DNA from: an uncultured Eubacteriales bacterium
Lineage (GTDB): Bacteria > Bacillota > Clostridia > Oscillospirales > Acutalibacteraceae
Length of the DNA: 64,000 nucleotides
Reading direction: 5' to 3'
Assembly: GCA_964369405.1 (NCBI GenBank)
Contig: CAYJGB010000001.1
Location: forward strand, 98,408 to 162,407
The position numbers and the translations under genes were made by a program. The notes beneath the pieces are model-generated. The model ran no database searches, was not told the origin of the DNA, and saw only the letters and a program-made list of their open reading frames with translations. This document shows, one piece after another, positions 11,488 to 48,550 of the stretch; the stretch's first letter is position 1, and each line of letters opens with the position of its first letter.

Positions 11488-13071
11488 TTGCCTGACTTTT
11501 TAAACGAGATAAGTAAAAGAAGAACTTTTGCAATTATATCTCACCCAGATGCCGGAAAAACAACTTTAACAGAGAAATTATTACTTTACAGTGGTGCGAT
11601 AAATGTTGCAGGAACAGTAAAAGGTAAAAAATCTTCAAAGCATGCAGTGTCTGACTGGATGGAAATAGAAAAACAAAGAGGTATTTCAGTAACATCATCT
11701 GTGCTACAATTTAAGTATGATGGATATTGTATTAATATACTAGACACACCAGGACATCAAGACTTTTCAGAAGACACATATAGAACTCTTATGGCAGCAG
11801 ATAGTGCAGTAATGGTTATTGATGCATCAAAAGGTGTAGAAGCACAAACTATAAAATTATTTAAAGTATGTTTGCTAAGAAATATACCAATTATAACATT
11901 TATAAATAAAATGGATAGGGAAGCAAAAAACCCATATGAATTGTTAGAAGATATAGAAAATGTACTAGGAATAAATACATATCCAATGAATTGGCCTATT
12001 GGATGTGGAAAAGAGTTTAAAGGTGTATATGATAGAAAAGAAGAAAGCATATTATCATTTACAGCAAACAATGGACAAAAAGAAGTAGAACAAAGAGAAT
12101 TAAAAGTAAATGATATTGACTTAGAAAATGAAATTGGCAAATTGTTTAAAGTGCAATTACTTGAAGATATAGAGCTTCTTGATATAGCGGGAGATGATTT
12201 TGATATAAATCAAGTAAGAGAAGGAAAGCTTACACCAGTATTTTTTGGTTCAGCACTAACAAATTTTGGAGTAGAACCATTTTTAAAAGAATTCTTAACA
12301 CTTACAACATCACCACTACCTAGAGAAACAAAAGATGAAGAAATAGAACCAACTGATGAACATTTTTCAGCATTTGTATTTAAAATACAAGCAAATATGA
12401 ACAAAGCACATAGAGATAGAATAGCATTTATGAGAATATGTTCAGGAAAATTTGAAAAGAATATGGAAGTATATCATGTTCAAGGTGGCAAAAAGATGAG
12501 GTTATCTCAACCACAACAAATTATGGCACAAGAAAGAGAAATAATAGAAGAAGCATATGCAGGAGATATAATTGGAGTGTTTGACCCAGGTATATTTTCT
12601 ATAGGAGATACAATATGTCTAGCAAATAAAAAAGTAGAGTTTAAAGGTATACCAACATTTGCACCAGAACATTTTTCATTAGTAAGACAAAAAGATACAA
12701 TGAAGAGAAAACAGTTTATAAAAGGTATATCACAAATTGCACAAGAGGGAGCAATACAAATATTCCAAGAACTAGGAGCTGGAATGGAAGAAGTAATTGT
12801 AGGAGTAGTAGGAACATTACAATTCGAAGTGTTGGAGTATAGACTTAAAAATGAATATAATGTAGATATTATAATGAGTGGATTGCCATATCAGTTTATA
12901 AGATGGATAGGCAATGAAGATATTGACCCTAAGACCTTAGATTTGTCATCAGATACAAAAAGAATACAAGATTTAAAAGGTAATTATTTATTATTGTTTA
13001 CTAGCCAGTGGACAATCAATTGGGCGTTAGAACATAATAAAGATTTAATTTTAAACGAATTTAGCGTGTAA
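11488..13071 (+). CDS. prfC: peptide chain release factor 3
   Basis: RRTFAIISHPDAGKTTLTEKLLL, DTPGHQDF and NKMD GTPase motifs in RF3 context. Likely TTG start at 11488, 7 nt after GGAGG and in frame with the track ORF that starts at 11452. Confidence 0.9.
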   Translation: MPDFLNEISKRRTFAIISHPDAGKTTLTEKLLLYSGAINVAGTVKGKKSSKHAVSDWMEIEKQRGISVTSSVLQFKYDGYCINILDTPGHQDFSEDTYRTLMAADSAVMVIDASKGVEAQTIKLFKVCLLRNIPIITFINKMDREAKNPYELLEDIENVLGINTYPMNWPIGCGKEFKGVYDRKEESILSFTANNGQKEVEQRELKVNDIDLENEIGKLFKVQLLEDIELLDIAGDDFDINQVREGKLTPVFFGSALTNFGVEPFLKEFLTLTTSPLPRETKDEEIEPTDEHFSAFVFKIQANMNKAHRDRIAFMRICSGKFEKNMEVYHVQGGKKMRLSQPQQIMAQEREIIEEAYAGDIIGVFDPGIFSIGDTICLANKKVEFKGIPTFAPEHFSLVRQKDTMKRKQFIKGISQIAQEGAIQIFQELGAGMEEVIVGVVGTLQFEVLEYRLKNEYNVDIIMSGLPYQFIRWIGNEDIDPKTLDLSSDTKRIQDLKGNYLLLFTSQWTINWALEHNKDLILNEFSV

Positions 13072-16702: not shown

Positions 16703-19612
16703 TTAATTATTATTTTTTTGCTCTTCAATAGCAGCAAGTAAACTTCTAACTCGAATTTTTACAGCTCCTAAGTTAGTTATTTCGTCAATTTTTATTTGAG
16801 TATATATTTTACCACTTTGCTCTAGTATATCACGCACTTCATCAGTAGTAATAGCATCAATACCACAACCAAAAGACACTAATTGAACTAAGTGCATATT
16901 AGGTTTATTAGAAATATATTTGGCAGCAGCATAAAGTCTTGAGTGATATGTCCATTGATTAAGTACACTTGTTCTAAAGTTAGCTACTTTATTACTAACA
17001 ACATCTTCTGAAATAATAGCAACATCAAAACTAGAAATTAATTTATCAATTCCTTTATTAATTTCAGGGTCAATATGATACGGTCTACCAGCTACAATAA
17101 ATATTTCTTTGTTGTTAGTTTCAGCTTCTTTTATAATTTCTTCACCTTTCATACGTACTTTAAATAAGAAATTATCATATTCATTATAAGCTTTATCACA
17201 AGCGATTTTAACGTCTTTTTTGTTGATATCTTTAAAATATTTAATTAGCATTTCATATGCTTTTTTAGTAAAGTCTTTTCTTCTGTGTATACCTAAATAA
17301 TCATTAATAAAAGTTATATTTTCTACATCTTTCATATTAGTGTTTATTACTTCAGGATAATAAGCGACTACTGGGCAGTTGTAATGATTATCACCTAATT
17401 TTTCATCGAAATTATAAGACATACAAGGATAAAAAATAGTATCGATACCATTATCAATTAAAGTTTGAACATGACCATGAATTAATTTTGCAGGATAACA
17501 AACAGTGTCAGAAGGTATAGTCTGTTGACCTTTTAAATATAGCTTAGTATCAGACACAGGAGAAGTAACACACTCAAACCCTAAACTAGTAAAGAAAGCA
17601 TGCCAGAAAGGTAAAAGTTCGTACATATTAAGCCCAAAAGGAAGACCTATTTTTCCACGAGTACCTTTAACTGGAATATATTCATTTAATAAGTTTAATT
17701 TATAATCATAAATATTTAGAGTTTGATTAGGTTTTTTATTAGTAATAGGACGCTCACATCTATTACCACCTATAAATTTTCTACCATCAGCAAATTTATT
17801 TATAGTTAATCTACAGTTGTTTTTACATAGGCCACAATTTGCAACTTTGATATCGTGTATAAAATCTTTAAAGCTGTCAGCTTTTAATAAAGAGCTTGTT
17901 TCTTGTGCATTAGCTTTTGCATAAAGCGAAGCACCAAACGCACCCATAAGACCAGAAATATCAGGTCTTACAACATCTACACCCATTTCTCGCTCGAAAG
18001 CACGTAAAACAGCGTCGTTTAAGAAAGTACCACCTTGTACTACTACTTTCTTACCTAAATCATCAGGGCTAGAGGCTCTAATAACTTTATACAAAGCATT
18101 TTTAACAACACTAATCGATAAACCAGCAGATATATCTTCAATAGTAGCACCGTCTTTTTGAGCTTGCTTTACAGAACTATTCATAAAAACAGTACATCTT
18201 GAACCAAGTTCAACAGGTAGTTTTGCAAAAATACCCATTTTAGCAAATTCTTCAATTGAATATCCCAAAGCGTTAGCAAAAGTTTGTAGGAAAGAACCAC
18301 AACCAGAAGAACAAGCCTCGTTTAAGAAGATGTTATCAATAGCACCGTTGTGAACTTTAAAACACTTAATATCTTGCCCACCTATATCAATAACGAACTC
18401 AACATCAGGCATAAAGTTTTTAGCAGCAGTAAAATGTGCAACAGTTTCAACAATACCAAAATCAGCACAAAAAGCATTTTTAATAAGTTCTTCACCATAG
18501 CCAGTAACAGCACTTGAAGCGATATTTATATTAGGAGAAATAGTATATAATTCCTCTAAAAAAGATTTTATTATAGGAACAGGGTTACCACTGTTCGGCA
18601 GATATTTAGAATGTAACAACTCGTTATTTTCGCCAATAACAACAGCTTTAACAGTTGTAGAACCAGCATCTATTCCAATATAAGTTTTGCCAGTATATTC
18701 ATTTAGAGGTTTTTTATCAATGGTAGCCTTTTGGTGTCTGCTAGTAAACTGATTATATTCATCTTCGCTATTAAAAAGAGGACTATTAAAAGCGAAATTA
18801 CCACTTCCATGGTACGAGTTAATTTTTTTGATTACATCACTAAAATTAATACTTTTCTCAGCACAAAGAGCAGCACCAGAAGCCACATAATAAAGCGAAT
18901 TGTCAGGAGAAATTCCTTTAGTATTAAGTACAGTATCAAACCTTTTTCTAAGTTGCGACATAAAAGTTAAAGGGCCACCTAAGTAAACAACATTACCAGA
19001 TATCTCTCTACCTTGAGCAAGCCCTGCAACAGTCTGATTAACAACAGCTAAAAAAATACTTTCAGCAATATCGCTTTTTCTAGCACCTTGATTTAATAGA
19101 GGTTGAATATCTGTTTTTGCAAATACTCCACATCTTGAAGCAATTGTGTAAGTTTTTTGATGTTCAGATGCTAGAGTATCCATATCTTCAAGAGGAACAT
19201 TTAAAAGAGTAGCCATTTGGTCGATAAATGCACCAGTACCACCAGCACAAGAGCCGTTCATACGTACCTCCATACCACCAGTTAAGAATAGTATTTTAGC
19301 ATCTTCGCCACCTAATTCAATAATAACATCAGTATTTGGAATAAATGTATTAGCAGAAACTCTAGTCGCATAAACTTCTTGAACAAAATCAATACCACAA
19401 GTTTCAGCAACACCCATACCAGCACTTCCAGATAAAGCAATATAGGCATTTTCACTACCTTTTATTTTGTCAGGTAAAATAGTAAGAATTTCAGAAATCT
19501 TATTAATAATTTGTGAGTAATGACGTTGATAAGTGCTATAAATTATATTGTTATCATCGTCTAATACAACGCATTTAATAGTTGTAGAGCCAACATCTAG
19601 TCCAATTCGCAT
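16703..19612 (-). CDS. double BcrAD/BadFG-type ATPase (2-hydroxyacyl-CoA dehydratase activase-like) fused to a dehydratase-related C-terminal domain
   Basis: Two activase repeats (MRIGLDVGSTTIKCVV... and YIGIDAGSTTVKAVV...), each followed by GGQDxK/CAAG-type segments. C-terminal ~380 aa is a Cys-rich domain (CGLCKNNCRL). ATG at 19612 follows GGGAG (track start 19651 has no RBS). Confidence 0.8.
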   Translation of the reverse strand: MRIGLDVGSTTIKCVVLDDDNNIIYSTYQRHYSQIINKISEILTILPDKIKGSENAYIALSGSAGMGVAETCGIDFVQEVYATRVSANTFIPNTDVIIELGGEDAKILFLTGGMEVRMNGSCAGGTGAFIDQMATLLNVPLEDMDTLASEHQKTYTIASRCGVFAKTDIQPLLNQGARKSDIAESIFLAVVNQTVAGLAQGREISGNVVYLGGPLTFMSQLRKRFDTVLNTKGISPDNSLYYVASGAALCAEKSINFSDVIKKINSYHGSGNFAFNSPLFNSEDEYNQFTSRHQKATIDKKPLNEYTGKTYIGIDAGSTTVKAVVIGENNELLHSKYLPNSGNPVPIIKSFLEELYTISPNINIASSAVTGYGEELIKNAFCADFGIVETVAHFTAAKNFMPDVEFVIDIGGQDIKCFKVHNGAIDNIFLNEACSSGCGSFLQTFANALGYSIEEFAKMGIFAKLPVELGSRCTVFMNSSVKQAQKDGATIEDISAGLSISVVKNALYKVIRASSPDDLGKKVVVQGGTFLNDAVLRAFEREMGVDVVRPDISGLMGAFGASLYAKANAQETSSLLKADSFKDFIHDIKVANCGLCKNNCRLTINKFADGRKFIGGNRCERPITNKKPNQTLNIYDYKLNLLNEYIPVKGTRGKIGLPFGLNMYELLPFWHAFFTSLGFECVTSPVSDTKLYLKGQQTIPSDTVCYPAKLIHGHVQTLIDNGIDTIFYPCMSYNFDEKLGDNHYNCPVVAYYPEVINTNMKDVENITFINDYLGIHRRKDFTKKAYEMLIKYFKDINKKDVKIACDKAYNEYDNFLFKVRMKGEEIIKEAETNNKEIFIVAGRPYHIDPEINKGIDKLISSFDVAIISEDVVSNKVANFRTSVLNQWTYHSRLYAAAKYISNKPNMHLVQLVSFGCGIDAITTDEVRDILEQSGKIYTQIKIDEITNLGAVKIRVRSLLAAIEEQKNNN

Positions 19613-20057: not shown

Positions 20058-20314
20058 AAATAATTCCTCCTAAATAAATTCGTTTTAAAATCGTTAGATT
20101 TAAGATGTAGACAAAAATATATAATTTATGTTACAATAACCAAAAGCAATGTTTTGAAAAATCTAACCTAAAAAATTTTAGTACAAAAACATATTATTAG
20201 TTATTTGTAAATTTGTCAATATAGTTTTTGAATTTTTTTCAAAAAAAATACTAAAAAATGAAAATTTAGATATTTTGAACAGAATTTTAAAATATTTTTG
20301 TAGGAGTGTATCAT

Positions 20315-21163
20315 ATGAAAAGTAAACAATATGCAGTAATAGGACATCCAATAGGACATACTATGTCACCATTTATACATAAAAGGTTGTTTGACCTTGC
20401 ACAAATAGATGCAAAATATTCAGTATTAGATATTTCGCCAGAAAATTTAAAATTAGAATTTAATAATACATTAAAAAATTTAGATGGATTTAATATAACA
20501 ATACCACATAAAGAAAATATAATTAATTGTTTAAATGGATTAGATGAAAAAGCAAAATTATATGGCAGTGTAAATACAGTAGACAATAAAAATGGAATAT
20601 ACACAGGCTATACAACTGACCCAGATGGATTTATAAAAGCATTAGAAGCTTATGACATTCCGTTTGAAAATAATGTTATGATTTTAGGGACTGGTGGAGT
20701 AGCTAGAACTATGGCATACGAAGCAGTAAAAGCTAATTGCAATCTAACTATAGCAGTTAGAAAAGAAGATATAGAAATATCTAACAAGTTAATAAAAGAG
20801 ATAACAACAAATATTGAAGCAAGTAGTATTAAAACGTGCTTAATTAGTGAGATAGATAATTCACAAATAGATTTACTTATTAATGCAACACCTATTGGAA
20901 TGTATCCAAGAGTTGATAATTGCCCTGTAAGTGACAATATAATCAATAATTGTAAAAATGTATTTGATGCAGTATATAATCCACTGGAAACTATACTGGT
21001 TAAAAAGGCAAAGGCACAAGGAAGTAATGCAGTAGGTGGAATGTCAATGCTTGTATGGCAAGCAGTAGTAGCTCATAATATATGGGACGGCAGTATTTAT
21101 AATAAAGAAGATATAGACAAATTATGTACAGATAGTGCAAACGAACTTAAAAACAATTTTTAA
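20315..21163 (+). CDS. aroE: shikimate dehydrogenase
   Basis: YAVIGHPIGHTMSPFIH, NITIPHK, SVNTV and GTGGVAR motifs. ATG at 20315 is 9 nt after AGGAG. Confidence 0.9.
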   Translation: MKSKQYAVIGHPIGHTMSPFIHKRLFDLAQIDAKYSVLDISPENLKLEFNNTLKNLDGFNITIPHKENIINCLNGLDEKAKLYGSVNTVDNKNGIYTGYTTDPDGFIKALEAYDIPFENNVMILGTGGVARTMAYEAVKANCNLTIAVRKEDIEISNKLIKEITTNIEASSIKTCLISEIDNSQIDLLINATPIGMYPRVDNCPVSDNIINNCKNVFDAVYNPLETILVKKAKAQGSNAVGGMSMLVWQAVVAHNIWDGSIYNKEDIDKLCTDSANELKNNF

Positions 21164-21180
21164 AAGATAGAAGGGATAAT

Positions 21181-21696
21181 ATGTTAGAAAATAAAAATAT
21201 AGTGTTGTGTGGCTTTATGGGCTGTGGAAAATCTACAATAGGAAAACAATTAGCAAAAGAGCTTAACAGAGAGCTAATTGATTTAGATGATTATATAGAG
21301 CAAAAAGAAAAAATGAAAATAACAGAAATTTTTTCGCAATATGGAGAAGAACACTTTAGAGATTTAGAGCATATGGCAGTAAAAGAATTATCAAATAAAA
21401 ACGGTTTAGTGATAAGTTCAGGTGGAGGGACACTAATATTTGAGAGAAATGTAGAAATATTAAAAGAAAATAGTGTAATAATATATTTAGAGTCATCACT
21501 TGAAGAAATCAAAGATAGACTTAAAAATGACACAAAAAGACCTCTACTTCAAAAGCCAAATAAAGATGAAATAATGCAAGAGTTATACAATAAAAGAGTA
21601 CCAATTTATAAAAAATCAAGCGATTATACAGTGAATTCAGATAAAACTATAAAACTTATAGTGAAAGATATTTGTGAATTAATTGTAAATAAATAA
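21181..21696 (+). CDS. aroK: shikimate kinase
   Basis: Walker A GFMGCGKSTIG, then LIDLDDYIE and SSGGG. 171 aa. Confidence 0.9.
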   Translation: MLENKNIVLCGFMGCGKSTIGKQLAKELNRELIDLDDYIEQKEKMKITEIFSQYGEEHFRDLEHMAVKELSNKNGLVISSGGGTLIFERNVEILKENSVIIYLESSLEEIKDRLKNDTKRPLLQKPNKDEIMQELYNKRVPIYKKSSDYTVNSDKTIKLIVKDICELIVNK

Positions 21697-21704
21697 AAAA
21701 ACTG

Positions 21705-21733
21705 TTGACAAATAGAAATTATAGTATTATTAT
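21705..21733 (+). promoter_or_regulatory. sigma-A type promoter of the aroF operon leader
   Basis: TTGACA (21705-21710), 17-nt spacer, TATTAT (21728-21733). Confidence 0.6.
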
Positions 21734-21767
21734 AGTAAACAAGAAAAAAACAGATAGGGGTTAGGTC

Positions 21768-21884
21768 ATGCAAAAGCAAAGCAAGTTAACACAACGATTT
21801 ATAAGCTTTGTTTATTTCAACTATTTTTATTGGTTGGAATTATTTGTGTTGCCCTATACTTACACTAAATGTAGTGTAAATTGA
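21768..21884 (+). CDS. candidate leader peptide rich in Phe/Tyr/Trp (38 codons)
   Basis: MQKQSKLTQRFISFVYFNYFYWLELFVLPYTYTKCSVN*. 11 of 38 residues are aromatic (5 F, 5 Y, 1 W), and 8 of the 12 residues at positions 11-22. AGGGG lies 7 nt upstream. The ORF sits between the promoter and a terminator just before aroF. It is below the ORF-track size cutoff. Confidence 0.45.
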   Translation: MQKQSKLTQRFISFVYFNYFYWLELFVLPYTYTKCSVN

Positions 21885-21926
21885 ATTTTGTTTTTTGATG
21901 TTAATATAAAACATTTTAACAAATTT

Positions 21927-21965
21927 AAGCATAGGGCATTTAGAAAATGTCTTATGCTTTTTTTA
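21927..21965 (+). terminator. rho-independent terminator/attenuator 34 nt upstream of aroF
   Basis: AAGCATAGGGCAT (21927-21939) pairs with ATGTCTTATGCTT (21947-21959) over 13 bp including two G-U pairs, then TTTTT. The 5' arm can alternatively pair with TGCCCTAT at 21850-21857. Confidence 0.65.
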
Positions 21966-21998
21966 ATATTAAAAATAAATTATGAATGAGGTTAAATT

Positions 21999-23015
21999 AT
22001 GATTATCGTATTAAAATCAAAAGTTACGCAGGAAAAAATTAATAAATTTACAGAGCAACTAAAAGACACTTATGGTGTTAAAGTAAATGTATGGGAAGGT
22101 GTTCATAGCACTGTTTTGGGCTTGATTGGCGATACAACTAAAATCGATATCGACAATATCAAAGCACAAGCTATAGTAGAAAACGTAAGAAGAGTTCAAG
22201 AGCCATACAAAAAAGCAAATAGAAAATTCCACCCAGAAAATACAGTAGTAACACTTAAAAATGGTATAAAAATAGGTGATGGTAGCCTTCAAATTATGGC
22301 AGGACCTTGCTCAGTAGAGAGCGAAAGCCAAATAATAGAAATTGCAAAAAGTGCAAATGCAAGTGGTGCTTCAATGCTTAGAGGTGGTGCATTTAAACCT
22401 AGAACATCACCATATGCATTCCAAGGATTAAAAGCTGAAGGGCTTGACCTACTTAGCAAAGCAAAAGCTCAAACAGGTATGCCAATAGTTACAGAAATTA
22501 TGAGAACTTCTCATATTGAATTATGTGAAGATGTAGATATAATTCAAGTTGGAGCAAGAAATATGCAAAACTTTGAATTGTTAAAAGAATTAGGTAAAAT
22601 CGACACTCCAATACTTTTAAAAAGAGGACTTAGCAGCACGATTGAAGAAATGCTTATGAGTGCTGAATATATTATGGCTGGAGGCAACGAAAACGTTATC
22701 TTATGCGAAAGAGGTATAAGAACTTATGAAACAGCTACAAGAAACACACTTGATATTTCAGCTGTTCCAATTCTAAAAAAATTATCACACTTACCAGTAG
22801 TAATAGACCCTAGCCATGCAGGTGGATTATCATGGTTAGTAGAGTCATTATCAATGGCAGCAGTAGCAGTAGGTGCAGACGGACTTATGATAGAAGTTCA
22901 TAACGACCCTGCTAATGCATTGTCAGACGGAGCACAAAGTTTAACACCAGAACAATTTGATAAAGTAGCAAAAAAAGTATTTGCATTAAAAGAATACTTA
23001 ACAAATCAAGAATAA
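21999..23015 (+). CDS. aroF: 3-deoxy-7-phosphoheptulonate (DAHP) synthase, type I-beta with N-terminal ferredoxin-like regulatory domain
   Basis: KDO8P/DAHPS-like core (MAGPCSVES, GAFKPRTSPY, IDPSH) preceded by a ~65-aa N-terminal domain. 338 aa. Confidence 0.85.
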   Translation: MIIVLKSKVTQEKINKFTEQLKDTYGVKVNVWEGVHSTVLGLIGDTTKIDIDNIKAQAIVENVRRVQEPYKKANRKFHPENTVVTLKNGIKIGDGSLQIMAGPCSVESESQIIEIAKSANASGASMLRGGAFKPRTSPYAFQGLKAEGLDLLSKAKAQTGMPIVTEIMRTSHIELCEDVDIIQVGARNMQNFELLKELGKIDTPILLKRGLSSTIEEMLMSAEYIMAGGNENVILCERGIRTYETATRNTLDISAVPILKKLSHLPVVIDPSHAGGLSWLVESLSMAAVAVGADGLMIEVHNDPANALSDGAQSLTPEQFDKVAKKVFALKEYLTNQE

Positions 23016-23119
23016 AATAAAATTATATTGTCCCACCGATTAAATAATTATTTAGTCGGTGGCACTCTTAAAATTTTACAAATGTTCAAATTTATATTAC
23101 AATAGATTGGGTGGTTAAA

Positions 23120-23950
23120 ATGAATATAGTTGTAGTTGGTTTAGGAATAATAGGTGGTTCATACTGTAAAGCGATAAAAAAATACACTGAGCATAAAGTA
23201 ATAGGAATAACTAGAAGTAAAAAAACATTACAAGATGCTATAAAGTGTGGTGCAATTGATGAAATAGGTAATGAGCAATCACTAAAATCAGCAGATTTAA
23301 TTATTTTAGGACTTTATCCTCAATATGCTATTGATTTCATTGAGCAAAATGTAAGTAATATAAAAAAAGGTTGTATTGTTACAGATACATCTGGTATTAA
23401 ATTATCAATTTGTCCAAAACTTATGGAGCTTGCAAAAGCAAATGATTTTATTTTTATTGGAAGTCATCCTATGGCTGGTAAAGAAAAAAATGGTTTTGAA
23501 GTATCAGAAGCAGACCTGTTTAAAGGTGCTAGCTTTATAGTAGTGCCAAGTGGTGCAAATAGAGAAAGTGTTAACTTATTATGCAGATTTGCACTTAGCA
23601 TAGGTTTTGGAGAAATTAGAATAGCAACACCACAAGAACACGATGAAATGATTGCATTCACTTCACAGCTACCTCACGTATTAGCTTGCTCATATGTGTT
23701 AAGCCCAAAATGTAAAAACCATAAAGGCTTTTCAGCGGGAAGTTATAGAGATGTATCAAGAGTAGCTAACATAAATGCTACATTGTGGACTGAATTGTTT
23801 TTAGAAAATAGTAAGCCTTTAGCAGAAGAAATTGGTGTTTTAATAGAAAATTTAACTCAGATGAAAAACGCAATTGAAAAAGAAGATAGCGATAAAATAT
23901 ATGATATGTTAGAAAAGGGTAGAAAAATTAAAGAGGAGCTTTCAGAATGA
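23120..23950 (+). CDS. tyrA: prephenate dehydrogenase
   Basis: MNIVVVGLGIIGGS Rossmann motif, then GSHPMAGKE. The ATG at 23120 is preferred over the GTG at 23111. Confidence 0.85.
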   Translation: MNIVVVGLGIIGGSYCKAIKKYTEHKVIGITRSKKTLQDAIKCGAIDEIGNEQSLKSADLIILGLYPQYAIDFIEQNVSNIKKGCIVTDTSGIKLSICPKLMELAKANDFIFIGSHPMAGKEKNGFEVSEADLFKGASFIVVPSGANRESVNLLCRFALSIGFGEIRIATPQEHDEMIAFTSQLPHVLACSYVLSPKCKNHKGFSAGSYRDVSRVANINATLWTELFLENSKPLAEEIGVLIENLTQMKNAIEKEDSDKIYDMLEKGRKIKEELSE

Positions 23951-25005
23951 AAATTTTAGAGGTTAAAACAGGTAGACCGTATCAAATTATAATTGATAGA
24001 GATATAATCAGATATTGTGGTGAATATATATCAAAGATTAGTAAAGCTCAAAAAATCATGGTTATAACTGATAGCAATGTAGAGGCTATATATTATAGTA
24101 AAGTTAAAAAGTCATTAGAAGAAAAAGGATTTCAAGTATATAACTTTACCTTTGAAGCTGGTGAACAGTCAAAAAAATTGAGAACTGTAATGGCAGCTTA
24201 CAACGAATTAGCAAACTTATGTTTCTCAAGAAGTGATTTAATAGTTGCTTTAGGTGGAGGTGTAACTGGTGATATGGCTGGATTTATTGCAGCTACATAT
24301 CAAAGAGGTATAGAGTTTGTACAAATACCAACTTCACTGTTAGCACAAGTTGATTCTTCAGTAGGAGGAAAAACTGGAATAGACATAGCACAAGGTAAAA
24401 ACTTAGTTGGTGCATTTTGGCAACCGTCATTAGTGTTAATTGACATAGATACATTAGATACATTACCTAAAGCATATTTTGATGATGGAATGGCAGAGGT
24501 TATTAAATATGGTTGCATTAAAAGCAAAGATTTATTTGAGAAATTAGAAGAAAATAATGCACGCAATATTATAGAGCAAATAATATATGAGTGTGTTAAT
24601 ATAAAAAGACAAGTAGTTGAAAATGATGAAGAAGAAAAAGGCGAACGTATGTTACTTAATTTTGGGCATACATTTGGTCATTCACTAGAAAAAATATATA
24701 ACTACAGTACACTTTCTCATGGTCAAGCAGTAGCAATAGGTATGGTTATAGTTACAAAAGCATCCGAAAACAATAATATAACAGAAAAAGGAACTACAAA
24801 AAGACTTATAAAAATACTCAAAAAGTATAATCTGCCTACTAAAGATATTAATGATTTAAAAAATATAGTGGAAAATTCATTTAATGATAAAAAAAGTAGT
24901 GGAGATTATATTAATATAGTTTTAGTTGATAAAATAGGGCATAGTTTTATTAAGAAAATTTTAAAAGCAGAACTTTATAACTTTTGTACAGTTAAAGGAG
25001 AATAA
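23947..25005 (+). CDS. aroB: 3-dehydroquinate synthase
   Basis: GGGVTGDMAGF, VDSSVGGKTGI and NFGHTFGH motifs. Overlaps the tyrA stop (ATGA). Confidence 0.9.
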   Translation: MKILEVKTGRPYQIIIDRDIIRYCGEYISKISKAQKIMVITDSNVEAIYYSKVKKSLEEKGFQVYNFTFEAGEQSKKLRTVMAAYNELANLCFSRSDLIVALGGGVTGDMAGFIAATYQRGIEFVQIPTSLLAQVDSSVGGKTGIDIAQGKNLVGAFWQPSLVLIDIDTLDTLPKAYFDDGMAEVIKYGCIKSKDLFEKLEENNARNIIEQIIYECVNIKRQVVENDEEEKGERMLLNFGHTFGHSLEKIYNYSTLSHGQAVAIGMVIVTKASENNNITEKGTTKRLIKILKKYNLPTKDINDLKNIVENSFNDKKSSGDYINIVLVDKIGHSFIKKILKAELYNFCTVKGE

Positions 25006-25010
25006 ATTAT

Positions 25011-26273
25011 ATGAGTGAAGTATTAGTTTCTAGCAGTTTTTTAAGTGGAGAAGTAAATATACCACCATCTAAAAGCTGTGTACATAGAGCTATAATTTGT
25101 GCAAGTTTAGCTAAAGGAAAAAGTATAATTTCACCTATTGACTTTTCAAATGACATTAATGCGACTATAGATTGTATAAAGAGATTAGGTGCAAAAGTTA
25201 CAATTGAAAAAACATCAATTATAGTAGATGGTACAGATGTGTTTTCAAATAAACAAGCAACATTAAATTGCAAAGAGTCTGGCTCTACACTTAGGTTTTT
25301 AATTCCAGTAGCAAGTGTAGGAGGAGTAGAAACAACTTTTTTAGGAGAAGGTAGACTACCACAAAGACCAATTGGCACATACTTAGAATTGTTGCCAGAA
25401 TTTGGAGTTTCAATGGAAACATTAGGTGGGTTGCCACTAAATGTTAAAGGTGCTTTAAAATCTGGAGAATATAAAATAGCAGGAGATATTAGTTCTCAAT
25501 TTATTACAGGACTACTTTTTGCATTACCACTTTTAAAAGAAGATAGCAAAATAATATTAACATCTAATTTAGAATCAAAAGGCTATGTCGATATGACAAT
25601 AAATGTTATGAAAACTTTTGGAGTTGAAATTTCTGAAAAAGAATATGGATATTTTGTAAAGGGAAATCAATCCTACAAGGCGTGTAACTTCACAACGGAG
25701 GGCGACTGGTCACAAGTTGCATTTTTTATGGCAGCAGGTGCTATAAATGGAGATGTAACAATAAATGGAGTAGATTTTAATTCGGCACAAGGCGACAAAG
25801 AGTGTGTTGAAATATTTAAAAGATTTAATGCAGATGTGACAATTAATAAAAATAGCGTAAATGTAAAAAAAAGTAAATTAAAGGCAACTGAAATAGATGC
25901 AAGACAAATACCCGATTTAGTACCAATTTTAGCAGTTGTAGCAAGTTTTGCACAGGGAACAACTAAAATAAAAAATGCTCAAAGGCTTAGAATAAAGGAA
26001 AGCGACAGATTAAAAGCAATAAGTGATGGGCTTAATAAAATAGGTGCAGATGTTTTAGAAACAGAAGATGGACTTATAATAAACGGAAAAAAAGAGTTAA
26101 TAGGTGGAAATACACTAGGATATAACGACCATAGGATAGTTATGTCACTAAGTGTAGCTTCATTAGGCTGTAGAGAGTGTGTATCAATTACAGATAAAGA
26201 AAGTATAAATAAATCTTATCCAAATTTCTTTATAGATTATAAAAATTTGGGTGGTAAAGTAAAAGATAAATAA
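25011..26273 (+). CDS. aroA: 3-phosphoshikimate 1-carboxyvinyltransferase (EPSP synthase)
   Basis: PPSKSCVHRAI, LNCKESGSTLRF, LRIKESDRL and NDHRIVMS motifs. 420 aa. Confidence 0.9.
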   Translation: MSEVLVSSSFLSGEVNIPPSKSCVHRAIICASLAKGKSIISPIDFSNDINATIDCIKRLGAKVTIEKTSIIVDGTDVFSNKQATLNCKESGSTLRFLIPVASVGGVETTFLGEGRLPQRPIGTYLELLPEFGVSMETLGGLPLNVKGALKSGEYKIAGDISSQFITGLLFALPLLKEDSKIILTSNLESKGYVDMTINVMKTFGVEISEKEYGYFVKGNQSYKACNFTTEGDWSQVAFFMAAGAINGDVTINGVDFNSAQGDKECVEIFKRFNADVTINKNSVNVKKSKLKATEIDARQIPDLVPILAVVASFAQGTTKIKNAQRLRIKESDRLKAISDGLNKIGADVLETEDGLIINGKKELIGGNTLGYNDHRIVMSLSVASLGCRECVSITDKESINKSYPNFFIDYKNLGGKVKDK

Positions 26274-26293
26274 AGTTTTAAGGAGAATATAAG

Positions 26294-27364
26294 ATGTCAT
26301 CATACTGTGGAAGTAAAATACAAGTATCAATATTTGGAGAAAGCCATGGCAAAGCAATAGGTGTTAATATAGATAATTTACCTAGTGGTGTAAAAATAGA
26401 TATGGAAAAAGTGTTACTTCAAATGGGTAGAAGAGCTCCGGGAAAAGATAAAGCAGCAACGCCTAGAAAAGAAGCAGACACACCAATAATATTAAGTGGT
26501 ATGCTAGAAAATACTACGACAGGAGCACCACTTTGTGCGATTATAGAAAATACAAATACACGTTCAACTGACTATAGTAATTTAATGACATTACCACGCC
26601 CATCACATTCAGACTATCCAGCGTATATTAAATACCAAGGGTTTAACGATATTAGAGGTGGAGGACATTTTTCTGGTAGACTTACAGCCCCTTTAGTGTT
26701 TGCAGGTTCAGTATGTAGGCAGATTTTACAAAATGACGGTATAGAGATAGTATCTCACATAAATTCGATAAAGAATATAAGTGATGAAAGGTTTAATCAA
26801 ACTAATATAGATTTAGAACTTATTAAAAGATTAAATAATGAAAGTTTTCCAGTTATAAATAAAGAGATAGAAGCTCAAATGCGAAATGAAATTGAAACAG
26901 CTAGAATGGAACAAGATAGCGTAGGTGGCATTATAGAATGTGGTGTAGTAGGATTTAAAGCAGGTGTTGGTAGTCCTATGTTTATGGGTGTTGAAAATGT
27001 TATATCGTCCGTAATGTTTGGAGTTCCAGCAGTAAAAGGTATTGAGTTTGGCAGTGGATTTGATATAACTAAACTTAATGGTAGTCAAAGTAATGACGAG
27101 TATTTTATAGATAATGGGCAGATTAAAACTAAAACTAATCACAATGGTGGTGTTTTAGGTGGAATTACAAACGGTATGCCTATAATATGTAGAGTAGCTA
27201 TAAAGCCTACACCATCTATATCAAAAGAGCAAAACACAATAAATTTACAAAACAATCAAAACGAAAAATTAATTATAAATGGTAGACATGACCCATGCAT
27301 TTTATCAAGAGCAAGTGTAGTAGTAGAAAGTGCAATGGCTATTGCTTTAATAAATTTACTATAA
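26294..27364 (+). CDS. aroC: chorismate synthase
   Basis: FGESHG, GRRAPGKD, RPSHSDY, GGGHFSGR and GRHDPC motifs. 356 aa. Confidence 0.9.
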   Translation: MSSYCGSKIQVSIFGESHGKAIGVNIDNLPSGVKIDMEKVLLQMGRRAPGKDKAATPRKEADTPIILSGMLENTTTGAPLCAIIENTNTRSTDYSNLMTLPRPSHSDYPAYIKYQGFNDIRGGGHFSGRLTAPLVFAGSVCRQILQNDGIEIVSHINSIKNISDERFNQTNIDLELIKRLNNESFPVINKEIEAQMRNEIETARMEQDSVGGIIECGVVGFKAGVGSPMFMGVENVISSVMFGVPAVKGIEFGSGFDITKLNGSQSNDEYFIDNGQIKTKTNHNGGVLGGITNGMPIICRVAIKPTPSISKEQNTINLQNNQNEKLIINGRHDPCILSRASVVVESAMAIALINLL

Positions 27365-27386
27365 TTTAGAGTTAAGAGGGATAAAA

Positions 27387-28523
27387 ATGGCTGGATTAGA
27401 CTCAATAAGAAAAGAAATTAATGATATAGATGCACAGTTAATAGAACTATTCAAACAAAGAATGGATTGTGCAAAAAGAGTAGGGGAGTTTAAAAAAGAA
27501 AACAACTTACCTATACTTAACCAACAAAGAGAAAATGAAATTTTAGATGTAGTGGAAAAAGAAGGTCAAGAGTATGGTTATGCATCAAGACTTTTATTTT
27601 CTAATATAATGGAGTTAAGTCGTGACTTGCAACATGATATTGTGGGAAGCGGAAACGCACTAAAAAATACTATAGAAAGTGCTAAAAGTATATTTGATAG
27701 AGAAGATAGTAATTTAAAAATTGCATGTCAAGGGATAAGTGGAGCAAACTCTCATCAAGCATCTAAGTTGATTTTTACAAACTCTCAACCAGTATTTAAA
27801 AAAACTTGGGAAGATGTTTTTAAAGCAGTAGAGAGTGGAGAAGTAAACTATGGAGTGTTACCAGTTGAAAATTCAAGTGCAGGTTCAGTATCAGATGTTT
27901 ACGATTTAATGATAAAATATAAATTTTATGTTGTAGCGTCGCTAGACCTTAATATAAAACATTGTTTATGTGGGCTACAAAATAGCGAGCTTTCAGATAT
28001 AAAAGAAGTGTTGTCACACCCACAAGGGCTATCACAGTGTTCAAACTATATAAGTGATAATAACTTAAAACCAGTACCATTTGACAATACAGCAACAGCA
28101 GCGTATGCTATAAGAGAAAGAAAAGATATACATAGTGCAGCTATATGTTCACAAAAGGCAGCAGAGGAGTATGGATTAAAAATTCTTAAGAGAGATTTTC
28201 AAAATAGCTTAGATAATTGCACACGTTTTATAGTTATATCTAAAGAATTGTTTATTGAAAAAGATGCTAGTAAAATTAGTCTTTGTTTTTCTCTACCACA
28301 TACAAAAGGTTCACTTTATAATGCGTTAGGAAGATTTAGCACAAACGGGCTTAATTTAACAAAAATAGAGTCAAGACCAATAGTTAATAGAAATTTTGAA
28401 TATTTATTTTATTTAGATTTTAGTGGAAACGTTTTTAATGAAAAAACCAAAAAACTACTATGTGCATTATCAGAAGAAATGCCTAGTTTTAGTTTTTTTG
28501 GAAATTATAAAGATTTATATTAA
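27387..28523 (+). CDS. pheA: bifunctional chorismate mutase / prephenate dehydratase (P-protein)
   Basis: N-terminal CM (IRKEINDIDAQLIELFKQRMD), PDT core (GVLPVENSSAGSV), and C-terminal ACT (GSLYNALGRFSTNGLNLTKIESRP). Confidence 0.85.
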   Translation: MAGLDSIRKEINDIDAQLIELFKQRMDCAKRVGEFKKENNLPILNQQRENEILDVVEKEGQEYGYASRLLFSNIMELSRDLQHDIVGSGNALKNTIESAKSIFDREDSNLKIACQGISGANSHQASKLIFTNSQPVFKKTWEDVFKAVESGEVNYGVLPVENSSAGSVSDVYDLMIKYKFYVVASLDLNIKHCLCGLQNSELSDIKEVLSHPQGLSQCSNYISDNNLKPVPFDNTATAAYAIRERKDIHSAAICSQKAAEEYGLKILKRDFQNSLDNCTRFIVISKELFIEKDASKISLCFSLPHTKGSLYNALGRFSTNGLNLTKIESRPIVNRNFEYLFYLDFSGNVFNEKTKKLLCALSEEMPSFSFFGNYKDLY

Positions 28524-28547: not shown

Positions 28548-29267
28548 ATGAAAAAATTAGTAGTTATTACAGGAGCAAGTTCAGGGTTTGGTAAAGCATT
28601 AGCAGAAGAATTTAGTAAGGCTGGGTATCCATTGCTTTTATTAGCTAGAAGAATAGAACTCTTAGAAGCGATGAACTTAGAAAATGCAATGTGTAGAAAA
28701 GTAGATGTAAAAGACAAAGAAAGTTTTGAAAAAGCAGTAAGAGAAGCGGAAGAGAAATACGGTAAGACAGATTTAATAATTAATAACGCTGGCATAATGC
28801 TTTTAGGAAACATAGAAACTCAACAAGAGCAAGAGTGGAAAGATATGTTAGATACGAACGTGCTAGGAGTAGTAAATGGAATGCAAATTGTAATGAATGA
28901 TATGATAGAAAGAGAATGTGGAACGATAATAAACGTATCATCAGTAGCAGGTGTAGCACCGTTTGCAAATCATGCAGTATATTGTGCAACAAAGTATGGA
29001 GTAGTAGGATTAACAGAAGTAGCAAGAATGGAGATGGCAAAACATAATATACGTATAATGTCAATATGCCCAGGAGCAGTTAAGACAGAATTATTAGGAC
29101 ACACAACAAGTGAAGAGATAAAGAATAATTATACAAAATGGCAAGAAGATGAGGGAGTTACAAGTATAACTTCTGAAGATGTAGCTAAAACTATAAAATT
29201 TGCATATGAGCTACCACAAGGAGTATGCCTAAAGCAAATTCAAATAGTTGATACAAAACAAAGTTAA
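28548..29267 (+). CDS. SDR-family oxidoreductase
   Basis: VITGASSGFG, NNAG and YCATK motifs. 239 aa. Confidence 0.85.
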   Translation: MKKLVVITGASSGFGKALAEEFSKAGYPLLLLARRIELLEAMNLENAMCRKVDVKDKESFEKAVREAEEKYGKTDLIINNAGIMLLGNIETQQEQEWKDMLDTNVLGVVNGMQIVMNDMIERECGTIINVSSVAGVAPFANHAVYCATKYGVVGLTEVARMEMAKHNIRIMSICPGAVKTELLGHTTSEEIKNNYTKWQEDEGVTSITSEDVAKTIKFAYELPQGVCLKQIQIVDTKQS

Positions 29268-48046: not shown

Positions 48047-48120
48047 GCGGATGTAGTTTAGTGGTAGAACTTCAGCCTTCCAAGCTGATCGTGTGGGTTC
48101 GATTCCCATCATCCGCTCCA
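48047..48120 (+). tRNA. tRNA-Gly (anticodon TCC)
   Basis: Acceptor GCGGATG/CATCCGC. Anticodon arm TCAGC-CTTCCAA-GCTGA. T-loop GGTTCGATTCC. Encoded CCA. Confidence 0.9.
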
Positions 48121-48151
48121 AAAGATTTTAATTTAATAATCTTAAACTTAT

Positions 48152-48228
48152 GTGCCAATAGCTCAGCCGGATAGAGCAACTGCCTTCTAAGCAGTAGGTC
48201 AGGGGTTCGAATCCCTTTTGGCACGCCA
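48152..48228 (+). tRNA. tRNA-Arg (anticodon TCT)
   Basis: Acceptor GTGCCAA/TTGGCAC. Anticodon arm ACTGC-CTTCTAA-GCAGT. T-loop GGTTCGAATCC. Encoded CCA. Confidence 0.9.
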
Positions 48229-48266
48229 ATGGTGACTAAGAATTTTATTCTTAATCACCATTATAT

Positions 48267-48344
48267 GGTGGATATAGCTTAGTCGGTTAAAGCGCCAGTT
48301 TGTGGCACTGGAGATCGTCGGTTCGAATCCGATTATCCACCCCA
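48267..48344 (+). tRNA. tRNA-His (anticodon GTG)
   Basis: Extra 5' G(-1) then GTGGATA/TATCCAC. Anticodon arm CCAGT-TTGTGGC-ACTGG. Encoded CCA. Confidence 0.9.
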
Positions 48345-48347
48345 TAT

Positions 48348-48423
48348 GATTCATTAGCTCAGCTGGCAGAGCACTTGACTTTTAATCAAGGTGTCCGGAG
48401 TTCGATTCTCCGATGAGTCACCA
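48348..48423 (+). tRNA. tRNA-Lys (anticodon TTT)
   Basis: Acceptor GATTCAT/ATGAGTC (one G-U pair). Anticodon arm CTTGA-CTTTTAA-TCAAG. Encoded CCA. Confidence 0.9.
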
Positions 48424-48455
48424 TTAGACGGACAAGTATAAACTTGTCCGTCTAA
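48424..48455 (+). other. strong hairpin inside the tRNA cluster (processing site or internal terminator)
   Basis: 14-bp perfect stem TTAGACGGACAAGT/ACTTGTCCGTCTAA starting immediately after tRNA-Lys. A weaker hairpin lies at 48231-48259 after tRNA-Arg. Confidence 0.5.
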
Positions 48456-48475
48456 TCAAAATTTATTATTAATAT

Positions 48476-48550
48476 TGGGCTATCGCCAAGCGGTAAGGCA
48501 ACGGACTTTGACTCCGTCAGTCGCTAGTTCGAATCTAGCTAGCCCAGCCA
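48476..48550 (+). tRNA. tRNA-Gln (anticodon TTG)
   Basis: Acceptor TGGGCTA/TAGCCCA. Anticodon arm ACGGA-CTTTGAC-TCCGT. Encoded CCA. Confidence 0.9.

Follow-up and report, generated by a model that had tools for sequence, protein, structure and literature searches.

The locus raises the question of how the shikimate operon aroF–tyrA–aroB–aroA–aroC–pheA is controlled by the short segment that precedes it, and to which amino acids this control would respond. The segment was analyzed within the window, i.e., the whole 64,000-nt stretch of DNA, and all of the features described below lie on its forward (+) strand. Sequence comparison and folding models make it likely that the segment is a leader acting as a ribosome-mediated transcription attenuator, which would make expression of the operon depend on how much charged tRNA-Phe and tRNA-Tyr is available.

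Organization of the Locus

The promoter consisted of TTGACA (21705–21710), a 17-nt spacer and TATTAT (21728–21733). This sigma-70-type element (21705–21733) matched 11 of the 12 consensus positions and was the top-scoring promoter within 21000–23000. The leader ORF (21768–21884) was located 34 nt downstream of the promoter, comprised 38 codons and a TGA stop codon, and read MQKQSKLTQRFISFVYFNYFYWLELFVLPYTYTKCSVN (38 aa). The Shine–Dalgarno (SD)-like AGGGG (21757–21761) was positioned 6 nt 5′ of the leader ATG, and the SD region ATAGGGG (21755–21761) aligned with the GGAG/AGGA of related leaders. The sequence of the SD region resembled the ATAGGGC of the terminator 5′ arm. The putative regulatory codons were those of residues 11–22 (21798–21833), which read FISFVYFNYFYW and included 4 F, 3 Y and 1 W, i.e., 8 aromatic codons; the whole peptide had 11 aromatic residues among 38 (5 F, 5 Y and 1 W). 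The aromatic run was opened by the Arg–Phe codon pair CGA–TTT (21795–21800). According to the Pfam assignments and the ORF list, the genes 3′ of the leader were aroF (with an FXD domain), tyrA, aroB, aroA, aroC and pheA (CM+PDT). These genes, which spanned 21999–28523 with the aroF ATG at 21999, are proposed to be regulated by the leader. The promoter, the 38-codon ORF with its ribosome binding site and aromatic run, and the gene order had all been given in a preliminary description of the locus and were confirmed here.

Predicted Alternative Structures of the Leader Transcript

In a scan of 2 kb, the intrinsic terminator (21927–21966) was the sole terminator-like site. Its stem–loop (21927–21959) contained 15 pairs (13 Watson–Crick and 2 G–U) and a 3-nt loop, had a predicted energy of −16.2 kcal/mol, and was followed by T7 (21960–21966); the distance from the end of the terminator to the aroF ATG was 33–34 nt. 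The 5′ arm of the terminator (21926–21938) was common to a putative antiterminator. The alternative pairing of this arm with 21850–21862 extended over 13 nt with 92% complementarity and had the core TGCCCTAT/ATAGGGCA. The duplex between 21849–21863 and 21924–21941 reached −16.1 kcal/mol, compared with −7.9 kcal/mol for the shuffled upstream sequence (z = −4.0, 0/200 shuffles). The antiterminator 5′ arm, or region 2 (TTGCCCTATACTTAC, 21849–21863), corresponded to codons 28–32 of the leader ORF and began 15 nt past the last codon of the aromatic run.

At the end of the ORF, an 8-bp hairpin (21860–21879) was obtained by pairing search and folding; it would form one branch of the antiterminator three-way junction, and an A/U-rich spacer hairpin (21881–21928) was predicted as the second branch in the nascent-transcript fold. 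Hairpin P1 (21812–21840) was predicted within the ORF both by folding and by the RNAalifold consensus, with a register ambiguous by 1 nt. The Tyr19–Phe20–Tyr21 codons (21822–21830) were in or adjoining the P1 loop. The terminator, the core of the alternative pairing and the hairpin at 21860–21879 corresponded to the structures that the preliminary description had claimed.

The pairing between regions 1 and 2 was also explored. In the window, it was no better than in shuffles, either for the Arg–Phe codons (p = 0.9) or for any upstream partner including the SD region (p = 0.19), whereas it was significant (p about 0.03) in L001 and L081, the nearest relatives. In both of them, the antiterminator arm likewise lay 54 nt after the CGA and had an A–U to G–C change. 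The stop codon lay 19 nt past the antiterminator arm in the window and 6–9 nt past the arm in L001 and L081. When the full leader was folded to minimum energy, the SD region was paired with 21853–21856, a pairing that did not stand out from shuffles (p = 0.19).

Proposed Mechanism of Attenuation

Transcription would start about 7 nt past the end of the −10 box at 21733. A ribosome would load at the SD region and the ATG at 21768 and translate the 38-codon leader as RNA polymerase advanced. When Phe-tRNA or Tyr-tRNA was scarce, the ribosome would stall in codons 11–22 (21798–21833), opening P1 and covering the RNA only to about 21848. The segment 21849–21863 would remain free and could then pair with the nascent 21926–21938 and close the three-way junction, in which the terminator 5′ arm would be sequestered and the polymerase would read into aroF. 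When both amino acids were plentiful, the ribosome would pass 21849–21863 and move toward the stop codon at 21882 while the terminator was being made; no junction would be formed, and the hairpin 21927–21959 with its U-run would end transcription. This core reading of the preliminary description, in which translation of the aromatic codons would set the choice between antiterminator and terminator, is strongly supported by the comparative evidence given below.

At equilibrium, the full window leader favoured the terminator fold over the antiterminator fold by about 7 kcal/mol, whichever ribosome state was modelled. Equilibrium folding was thus uninformative, and the switch would have to be kinetic. 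The antiterminator was favoured only in the nascent-transcript fold. In the modelled nascent transcripts, the probability of sequestration of the terminator 5′ arm was 0.65 with a ribosome stalled in the run, 0.33 with the ribosome at the stop codon and 0.48 with no ribosome, the comparison of the stalled and stop states being biased because the stop state leaves less RNA to pair. The direction was as expected in 53/60 loci relative to the stop state, with the same bias, and in 47/60 loci relative to the state with no ribosome. The corresponding values for the window itself were 0.65 (stalled), 0.04 (at the stop codon, again with less RNA left to pair) and 0.65 (no ribosome).

One step of the earlier scheme requires correction. 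A ribosome at the stop codon had been expected to occlude the antiterminator arm, but with 21882 in the A site, a ribosome would cover roughly 21867–21897 and miss 21849–21863. The outcome of the plentiful state would therefore hang on timing or on the re-pairing of the arm with upstream RNA. In L001 and L081, a ribosome at the stop codon would indeed occlude the arm. Furthermore, Tyr codons 30 and 32 sit inside the antiterminator arm of the window, so a stall there would favour termination.

Conservation of the Leader Upstream of aroF

Aromatic richness alone was weak evidence for a leader because 14 other ATG mini-ORFs in the window (30% GC) reached 6 aromatic residues in 12, and 3 others reached 8. 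The case for the leader rests on comparative data, for which a mini-ORF was defined as an ATG ORF containing 6 or more aromatic residues within 12, located at most 300 nt upstream of aroF. Such a mini-ORF was found at 51/79 genome aroF loci and in 0/79 reverse complements. The mean aromatic score was 5.8 for the observed sequences and 2.2 for dinucleotide shuffles, and 0/50 shuffles reached the observed value at 40 loci. With the genome and metagenome aroF loci of other Clostridia taken together, the mini-ORF was present at 87/151 loci; the genome GC of the loci ranged from 0.30 to 0.70. The 64/151 aroF loci without a mini-ORF included several of the closest AroF relatives (L003, L004 and L082–L085). 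The nearest relatives belonged to Oscillospiraceae, Ruminococcaceae and other Clostridia, and the closest AroF identity was 78% among genomes and 81% among metagenomes, no record being identical to the AroF of the window.

An intrinsic terminator was located between the mini-ORF and aroF in nearly all of the loci with a mini-ORF. The search for an aromatic mini-ORF plus a terminator in related aroF leaders, which the preliminary description had suggested, was thus successful. Moreover, the terminator 5′ arm had an upstream partner better than shuffles (p ≤ 0.05) in 19/60 loci, where 3 were expected (Wilcoxon 1.6e-8). This partner started at a median of 16.5 nt past the run and ended at a median of 7 nt before the end of the ORF. 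The homologous peptides were 14 to about 60 aa in length; the run length and spacing varied freely, and the C-termini were unrelated.

The window's own subgroup comprised 19 leaders from genomes with GC of 0.28–0.70. The ATG, the SD and the CGATTT (Arg–Phe) were invariant in the alignment of these leaders. The spacing from ATG to CGA was 15, 21, 24 or 27 nt and was a multiple of 3 in 19/19 leaders, and this constancy of frame points to a coding constraint. A TTGACA-17-TATNAT promoter occurred 29–78 nt before the leader ATG in 18/19 leaders. In the MAFFT alignment, the 5′ half of the leaders aligned well and the 3′ half did not. P1 and the terminator were the only structures that RNAalifold recovered from this alignment, and the terminator stem had compensatory changes. 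Because the 3′ half was poorly aligned, the antiterminator was scored for each sequence by its duplex energy relative to shuffles, and the pairing reached p ≤ 0.05 in 8/19 loci (Fisher 4e-7). For P1, 69% of the cells were paired across the 19 leaders, and changes on both sides numbered 18, compared with 9.0 ± 2.3 in shuffles (0/500). Only about 3 relatives were close enough to examine fine-scale covariation in the helices of the window itself.

A covariance model built from the subgroup, R1, found one copy only in the window (73.7 bits), with no second copy such as a uORF-12-like leader before a transporter. R1 also matched the aroF leader of Clostridium ganghwense (L068) with 29.3 bits and an E value of about 1e-4. 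No further members of the window's clade were found among the remaining metagenome loci.

Amino Acids Probably Sensed by the Leader

The aromatic residues in the 87 runs were 342 F (54%), 281 Y (44%) and 16 W (2.5%), and the codons were TTT (284), TTC (58), TAT (159) and TAC (122). Since F and Y dominated the runs, the supported reading is that the family senses Phe and Tyr and that Trp is incidental. The content of the operon, which has tyrA and pheA and lacks trp genes, matches this F/Y composition. The preliminary description had proposed that Phe, Tyr and Trp are all sensed; the assignment to Phe and Tyr was supported, and that to Trp was not.

Chorismate is also the precursor for Trp synthesis, and the single Trp codon of the window, W22, might add a response to Trp starvation and make the leader a three-input attenuator. 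W22 ends the run and is well placed for a productive stall, and W was present in 7/19 leaders of the subgroup. These W residues, however, did not fall in one conserved peptide position, and W was present in only 15/87 leaders of the family, with 72 having none. The W22 codon (21831–21833) coincides with the start of the G-rich 3′ arm of P1, which also speaks against this role, as does the lack of trp genes in the operon. A third input from Trp was hence judged unlikely.

The leaders of the subgroup might also be something other than plain sensors of tRNA charging. CGA–UUU and the Tyr–Phe codons of the P1 loop could represent a programmed pause or a nascent-peptide element, or else two stall sites acting as a Phe AND/OR Tyr gate, although we regard such an elaboration as quite doubtful. 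A programmed pause, if true, might synchronise the ribosome with RNA polymerase, and either variant would be an attenuation type not described for classical leaders.

Readings Without a Regulatory Peptide

The T-box is the usual amino-acid sensor of Firmicutes. T-box leaders occupy the same genomic niche as the window leader and make the same choice between antiterminator and terminator, but they need no ORF. When the whole 64-kb window was searched with Rfam 15 at the gathering score, no T-box, riboswitch or other family was detected. A search of 21600–22100 with 4227 Rfam 15 families at E ≤ 10 gave no relevant match, including to the T-box and the leader-peptide families. The latter represent the enterobacterial Phe, Trp, His, Leu and Thr leaders and the Lactococcus leu/phe leader. 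No T-box or other family was found upstream of aroF in 20 related loci, and the sole T-box was located elsewhere, in L027. A T-box, riboswitch or other known RNA family was rejected on these results, in agreement with the earlier statement that no T-box core was seen.

A switch that is independent of translation was also considered. A TRAP-like protein or a small ligand might bind the U/A-rich triplet repeats or ACGAUUUAC/P1, with the ORF being a by-product. The CGATTT was kept as nucleotides, with no other Arg codon used over GC values of 0.28–0.70, and P1 was a conserved hairpin with some covariation, both of which indicate that the RNA as such is constrained. The invariant ATG and SD and the multiples of 3 in all of the ATG–CGATTT indels nevertheless speak against such a switch. 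The runs varied between T and C at the third codon position and between A and T at the second, which preserved the class of amino acid rather than an RNA word, and their length and spacing differed freely among the leaders. No matching Rfam family was found, and no candidate regulator gene lay beside the leader in the window. A switch of this type is therefore improbable.

The preliminary description had also mentioned that the 38-aa product might be a stable small hydrophobic membrane peptide or type I toxin-like product. The terminator would then be the end of its gene. The hydrophobicity of the core FISFVYFNYFYWLELFVLPY would suffice for a membrane helix. However, the peptide had no Pfam match, and its homologues, which differed several-fold in length as given above, had in common only the aromatic run and, in the subgroup, the Arg–Phe pair. 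A folded protein is argued against because nothing else was conserved. Moreover, the element was always directly 5′ of aroF on the same strand, the terminator 5′ arm had a conserved alternative partner inside the ORF, and no antisense RNA features were seen. A membrane or toxin-like product is thus very improbable. Chance formation of an ORF and a hairpin in AT-rich intergenic DNA, in which TTT and TAT are common at 30% GC and other aromatic-rich mini-ORFs do occur, was refuted by the comparative data and has a negligible likelihood, given that the element was kept in genomes of up to 70% GC, that reverse complements did not qualify and shuffles seldom reached the observed values, that the frame, start codon, promoter and terminator were all conserved, and that R1 found exactly one copy in the window.

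Comparison With Known Attenuators

The attenuator reading was compared with the systems described previously. Stav et al. 2019 (BMC Microbiol 19:66, PMC6429828, Additional files 1 and 3) described uORF-12 and uORF-13 of Firmicutes as "aromatic amino acid attenuators". F/Y-rich attenuator uORFs 5′ of aroF and other shikimate genes were reported there for >1,500 Firmicutes loci (PMC6429828). Ribosome-mediated attenuation had been regarded in the preliminary description as rarely reported in Firmicutes, and a mixed leader on the common pathway as unusual. Neither view can be kept, in consideration of these loci and of an F-Y-F leader on aroF in Corynebacterium glutamicum.

uORF-13 is represented by 336 examples, about half of which are upstream of aroF (DAHP synthase), with tyrA being the next commonest gene; its type example is that of Clostridium novyi NT (NC_008593.1/2309418-2308872), and it occurs in Firmicutes including Clostridiales and was proposed to act like the trp attenuator (PMC6429828). 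uORF-13 has a short ORF, a conserved F-Y-F in the P1 loop and then a terminator stem. The same arrangement was found in the window, with Y19-F20-Y21 at the P1 loop, and the position of the window leader upstream of aroF–tyrA agrees with the niche of uORF-13 (aroF, tyrA and shikimate genes of Firmicutes). By contrast, the invariant Arg–Phe (CGATTT) start and the longer, 12-residue run of the window's subgroup are unmentioned in the text of PMC6429828. As judged from the described features and the R1 link to the Clostridium leader L068, the window leader fits the description of uORF-13. It is most likely a new, divergent member of the class predicted in 2019 for Firmicutes. uORF-12 is likewise an F/Y-rich uORF with an associated structure in Firmicutes and is mostly upstream of amino-acid transporters (PMC6429828). 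Some of its examples are 5′ of shikimate and Phe/Tyr biosynthesis genes, like the window leader; the difference is that the run of the window spans the P1 loop.

Phe-dependent attenuation has been proposed for uORFC-13-1 of Acholeplasma aroF (Brewer et al. 2021, RNA Biol 18:2417, PMC8632094). As compared by description, uORFC-13-1 and the window leader both have a promoter, a ribosome binding site, a start codon, a Phe-coding U-run and an adjacent intrinsic terminator before aroF. uORFC-13-1 differs in being confined to Acholeplasma and environmental sequences (24 examples) and in being described with "at least one" Phe and no emphasis on Tyr.

According to the summary of Neshat et al. 2014 in PMC11802643, the aroR leader peptide of Corynebacterium glutamicum is an F-Y-F leader on aroF, and ribosome stalling under Phe limitation raises transcription. 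No other mixed F/Y leader on the common pathway is known to have been studied by experiment. The aroR leader comes from Actinobacteria, and the availability of Tyr is given there as having no effect on the Corynebacterium operon (PMC11802643), which calls for caution in assuming that Tyr is sensed in the window.

The enterobacterial pheL–pheA and trpL–trp systems (Yanofsky model; PMC3082878) follow the same logic as the window leader, i.e., an ORF with regulatory codons and mutually exclusive antiterminator and terminator, and the stall site is about 15 nt upstream of the antiterminator 5′ arm in both. They have no sequence or Rfam relationship to it; pheL contains regulatory codons for Phe only, and the enteric leaders govern terminal branches instead of the common pathway. 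Moreover, the 1:2 hairpin is not demonstrable in the window, and its stop codon is too far downstream to mask region 2.

The finding is solid, though ordinary: this type of element had already been predicted in 2019, and Corynebacterium offers a mechanistic precedent, so that current understanding is left as it was. With this leader, an uncultured-type, low-GC member of the Oscillospiraceae/Ruminococcaceae group probably sets its whole shikimate flux via the charging of Phe- and Tyr-tRNA and not through a T-box or repressor. Among gut and rumen Clostridia, such leaders are widespread. For the Firmicutes class uORF-12/uORF-13, the literature consulted contained no functional test, and the window leader, with its strong promoter, long run and well-defined antiterminator, would be a handy test case and possibly a Phe/Tyr-responsive part for anaerobes. 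In agreement with the attenuator reading, a premature termination event, for which no riboregulator is known, has been mapped in the aroF 5′ UTR of Clostridioides difficile (PMC8237595).

Leader Elements in the Window

All elements of the leader lay on the plus strand. The sigma-70-like promoter (TTGACA at 21705-21710, 17-nt spacer, TATTAT at 21728-21733) matched at 11/12 positions and was the top site in 21000-23000. The leader ORF (21768-21884) encoded MQKQSKLTQRFISFVYFNYFYWLELFVLPYTYTKCSVN, in which F and Y each occurred five times and W once; the aromatic run FISFVYFNYFYW occupied residues 11-22. The intrinsic terminator (21927-21959 followed by T7; 15 pairs, 3-nt loop, -16.2 kcal/mol) was the sole terminator-like site in the scanned 2 kb. 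An alternative pairing connected 21850-21862 with 21926-21938 (13 nt, 92% complementary), and an 8-bp hairpin was formed by 21860-21879. These elements were found where the preliminary description had placed them, and its absence of a T-box agreed with the Rfam search, T-box included, which gave zero matches at the leader even at E <= 10.

Conservation of the Aromatic Mini-ORF

The GC content of the window was 30%, and 14 other ATG mini-ORFs with at least 6/12 aromatic residues were present. ATG mini-ORFs with 8/12 aromatic residues at 12316-12363 (minus strand), 17075-17167 (plus strand) and 43237-43314 (minus strand) show that such ORFs arise easily at this GC content. Hence, aromatic richness alone was unremarkable, and a comparison was needed to settle the question. 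The aroF loci for the comparison were drawn from two sources, contigs representing one genome per species and metagenomes, with 80 loci from each. The AroF of the window itself was absent from the searched records, and the closest AroF proteins were only 78-81% identical to it. The relatives belonged to Oscillospiraceae, Ruminococcaceae, Acutalibacteraceae, Lachnospiraceae, Acetobacterium, Christensenellaceae and one Clostridium. A mini-ORF was counted when it had an ATG start, lay within 300 nt 5' of aroF and included a 12-residue segment with 6 or more aromatic residues.

Such a mini-ORF occurred in 51/79 genome loci vs. 0/79 reverse complements. The aromatic score of the 79 genome loci was 5.8, whereas the mean in dinucleotide-preserving shuffles was 2.2, and in 40 of them the observed score was unmatched by any of 50 shuffles. 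The GC content of the genomes ranged from 30% to 70%; base composition therefore did not explain the excess. For genomes and metagenomes together, 87 of the 151 usable loci carried the mini-ORF, and an intrinsic terminator followed nearly every one, 15-110 nt 5' of aroF. This comparison of related leaders, which the preliminary description had proposed, supported its core reading of a leader-peptide attenuator before aroF.

The mini-ORF was missing in 64/151 loci (among them L003, L004, L082-L085 and L093), and some of these ranked among the nearest to the window by AroF. No known Rfam element was detected 5' of aroF in the 20 of these loci that were scanned. The metagenome-assembled genome ERR1190762-bin.8 had two aroF paralogues, one with an F-rich leader (locus L022) and one without (locus L027); a T-box leader (L027:5259-5503) was located approximately 1.3 kb downstream of the latter aroF.

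Codon-Level Conservation in the Arg-Phe Subgroup

The run opened with Arg-Phe in 19 leaders, namely that of the window and those of the aroF loci L001, L006, L007, L009-L013, L016, L050, L051, L054, L081, L086, L095, L096, L100 and L105. Their alignment had invariant columns at the ATG, at the hexamer CGATTT and in part of the run. Each ATG was preceded by a GGAG-like SD, and a TTGACA-17-TATNAT promoter lay 29-78 nt 5' of the ATG in 18/19 leaders. The ATG-to-CGA spacing was 15, 21, 24 or 27 nt, a multiple of 3 in 19/19, which is expected by chance about once in 3^18. CGA-TTT (21795-21800 in the window) was nucleotide-invariant over a genome GC of 0.28-0.70, despite the six Arg codons. The wobble position in the runs was variable (TTT 284, TTC 58, TAT 159, TAC 122), and Phe and Tyr were exchanged via the second codon position. 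This pattern is expected of selection on the amino-acid class, not on an RNA word.

A covariance model of the leader 5' half hit the window exactly once, at 21754-21859 (73.7 bits), with no match to the three 8/12 mini-ORFs. The same model matched leaders beyond its training set, among them the Clostridium ganghwense leader (L068, 29.3 bits). In L001 and L081, but not in the window, the segment TTTACAGG adjoining CGA-TTT paired with the antiterminator arm. The motif CGATTT(T)AC occurred twice, 24 nt apart, in L007:2728-2826, L096:1242-1340 and L154:695-793 (peptide GRFTKYFSTRFY), and looks from its sequence like an internal duplication of the run start.

RNA Structures and Alternative Pairing

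Compensatory changes were present in the terminator stem across the subgroup. The hairpin P1 (21812-21840 in the window) was inside the ORF, with Tyr-Phe(-Tyr) codons in its loop. In the subgroup, 69% of P1 cells were paired, and both-side changes occurred in 18 cells vs. 9.0 +/- 2.3 in shuffles (0/500); the register was uncertain by one nucleotide, as a slide of -1 gave a similar score.

The antiterminator was not alignable between clades and was therefore tested per sequence. The upstream partner of the terminator 5' arm was stabler than in shuffled leaders in 19/60 loci at p <= 0.05, vs. 3 expected. Over the 60 loci, the mean z was -1.3 (Wilcoxon 1.6e-8), and the window (z = -4.0) was among the best cases. 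The partner started at a median of 16.5 nt past the last aromatic codon, just outside the leading edge of a stalled ribosome, and ended at a median of 7 nt ahead of the ORF end. The arm position, 54 nt past CGA, was common to the window, L001 and L081, and the pairing showed an A-U to G-C exchange among them (CCCUAU:AUAGGG vs. CCCUGU:ACGGGG). In the FAAEYFYFYF... leader subfamily, the classical four regions were discernible by eye: TTTGCAGC and the run paired with AAAGTAA...TTTGCTGC, a segment similar to the terminator 3' arm CTGCGG. No helix between regions 1 and 2 in the window was significant vs. shuffles.

The leader SD region (21755-21761, ATAGGGG) nearly repeated the terminator 5' arm (21931-21937, ATAGGGC); masking of the leader SD through pairing with the antiterminator arm CCCTAT is therefore conceivable as well. 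This pairing was predicted in the full-leader minimum-energy fold, yet it was no better than shuffles (p = 0.19).

Proposed Mechanism in the Window

The fold of 21834-21943, from which the terminator 3' arm was absent, had a minimum-energy structure that paired 21850-21857 with 21931-21938. This helix closed a three-way junction with the branches 21860-21879 and 21881-21928 (-25.3 kcal/mol). When the A site is at any of codons 17-22, the ribosome footprint would extend to approximately 21848 at most and leave the arm free, which would represent the read-through state. An undelayed ribosome would traverse the arm and unwind the branch hairpins during synthesis of 21927-21966, and the terminator would form. 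In a simple nascent-transcript model applied to 60 aroF loci, the predicted probability of terminator 5' arm sequestration was 0.65 for a ribosome stalled in the run, 0.33 for one at the stop and 0.48 without a ribosome; the comparison of 0.65 with 0.33 is length-biased, whereas that of 0.65 with 0.48 is unbiased. The terminator fold was approximately 7 kcal/mol better at equilibrium in every modelled ribosome state, so the choice must be kinetic.

Masking of the arm by a ribosome at the stop codon, as previously proposed, did not fit the geometry. With the A site at 21882, about 21867-21897 would be covered, and the arm would lie outside. In L001 and L081, 6-9 nt separated the arm from the stop downstream of it. 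Tyr codons 30 and 32 of the leader fell within the antiterminator arm.

Amino Acids Probably Sensed

The run residues in the 87 leaders were 342 F, 281 Y and 16 W; W was absent from 72 of these leaders. In the subgroup, W occurred in 7/19 leaders at variable peptide positions; the W codon of the window (21831-21833) lay where the P1 3' arm starts. The operon contained tyrA and pheA and no trp genes. According to these results, the leader family is a putative Phe/Tyr sensor, and the Trp sensing of the preliminary description was not upheld. A Trp contribution by the lone W22 of the window, a residue without comparative support, is conceivable. Tyr sensing is only predicted for the window leader; the F-Y-F leader aroR of Corynebacterium glutamicum responds to Phe limitation but not to Tyr limitation (PMC11802643).

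Relation to Known Attenuator Classes

Two aromatic amino acid attenuators were described by Stav et al. (2019; PMC6429828), who analysed Clostridium novyi NT. The uORF-12 motif (1258 examples) is mainly 5' of amino-acid transporters, and its F/Y-rich peptide is coded just ahead of P1. The uORF-13 motif (336 examples; Bacillales, Clostridiales, Thermoanaerobacterales, Negativicutes) has a short ORF, a conserved F-Y-F in the P1 loop and then a terminator stem; about half of the examples are 5' of aroF, with tyrA second. For both, trp-like attenuation was proposed, and both are distinct from the Actinobacteria aroR (PMC6429828). The motif uORFC-13-1, 5' of aroF in Acholeplasma, was added by Brewer et al. 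(2021; PMC8632094). Premature termination was mapped in the C. difficile aroF 5' UTR, with no known riboregulator (Fuchs et al., 2021; PMC8237595), and regular leader peptides in Firmicutes had already been reported (Naville and Gautheret, 2010; PMC2965389).

The window leader had all described uORF-13 features, compared by description because Rfam 15 has no entry for this motif. Judged by its sequence, it is a new, rather divergent member of this published, predicted attenuator class. The observations and core reading of the preliminary description stood; Trp sensing and stop-codon masking did not, nor did rarity in Firmicutes, given the published uORF-12 and uORF-13 examples.

Genes Around the Leader

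The six genes of the expected operon, aroF, tyrA, aroB, aroA, aroC and pheA, were all present downstream of the leader in this order on the plus strand. The aroF product was a DAHP synthase with a ferredoxin-like N-domain, and that of pheA combined chorismate mutase and prephenate dehydratase. Directly upstream, on the same strand, were aroE (20306-21163) and aroK (21181-21696). The leader promoter began 9 nt after the aroK stop, with no terminator-like site between them; possibly, the aro genes belong to one supra-operon, and the attenuated promoter is an internal one. A short-chain dehydrogenase/reductase gene (28548-29267, same strand), 24 nt past pheA, may be the last operon gene. A five-tRNA gene cluster was located at 48047-48547 on the plus strand (Rfam tRNA, 65-72 bits).
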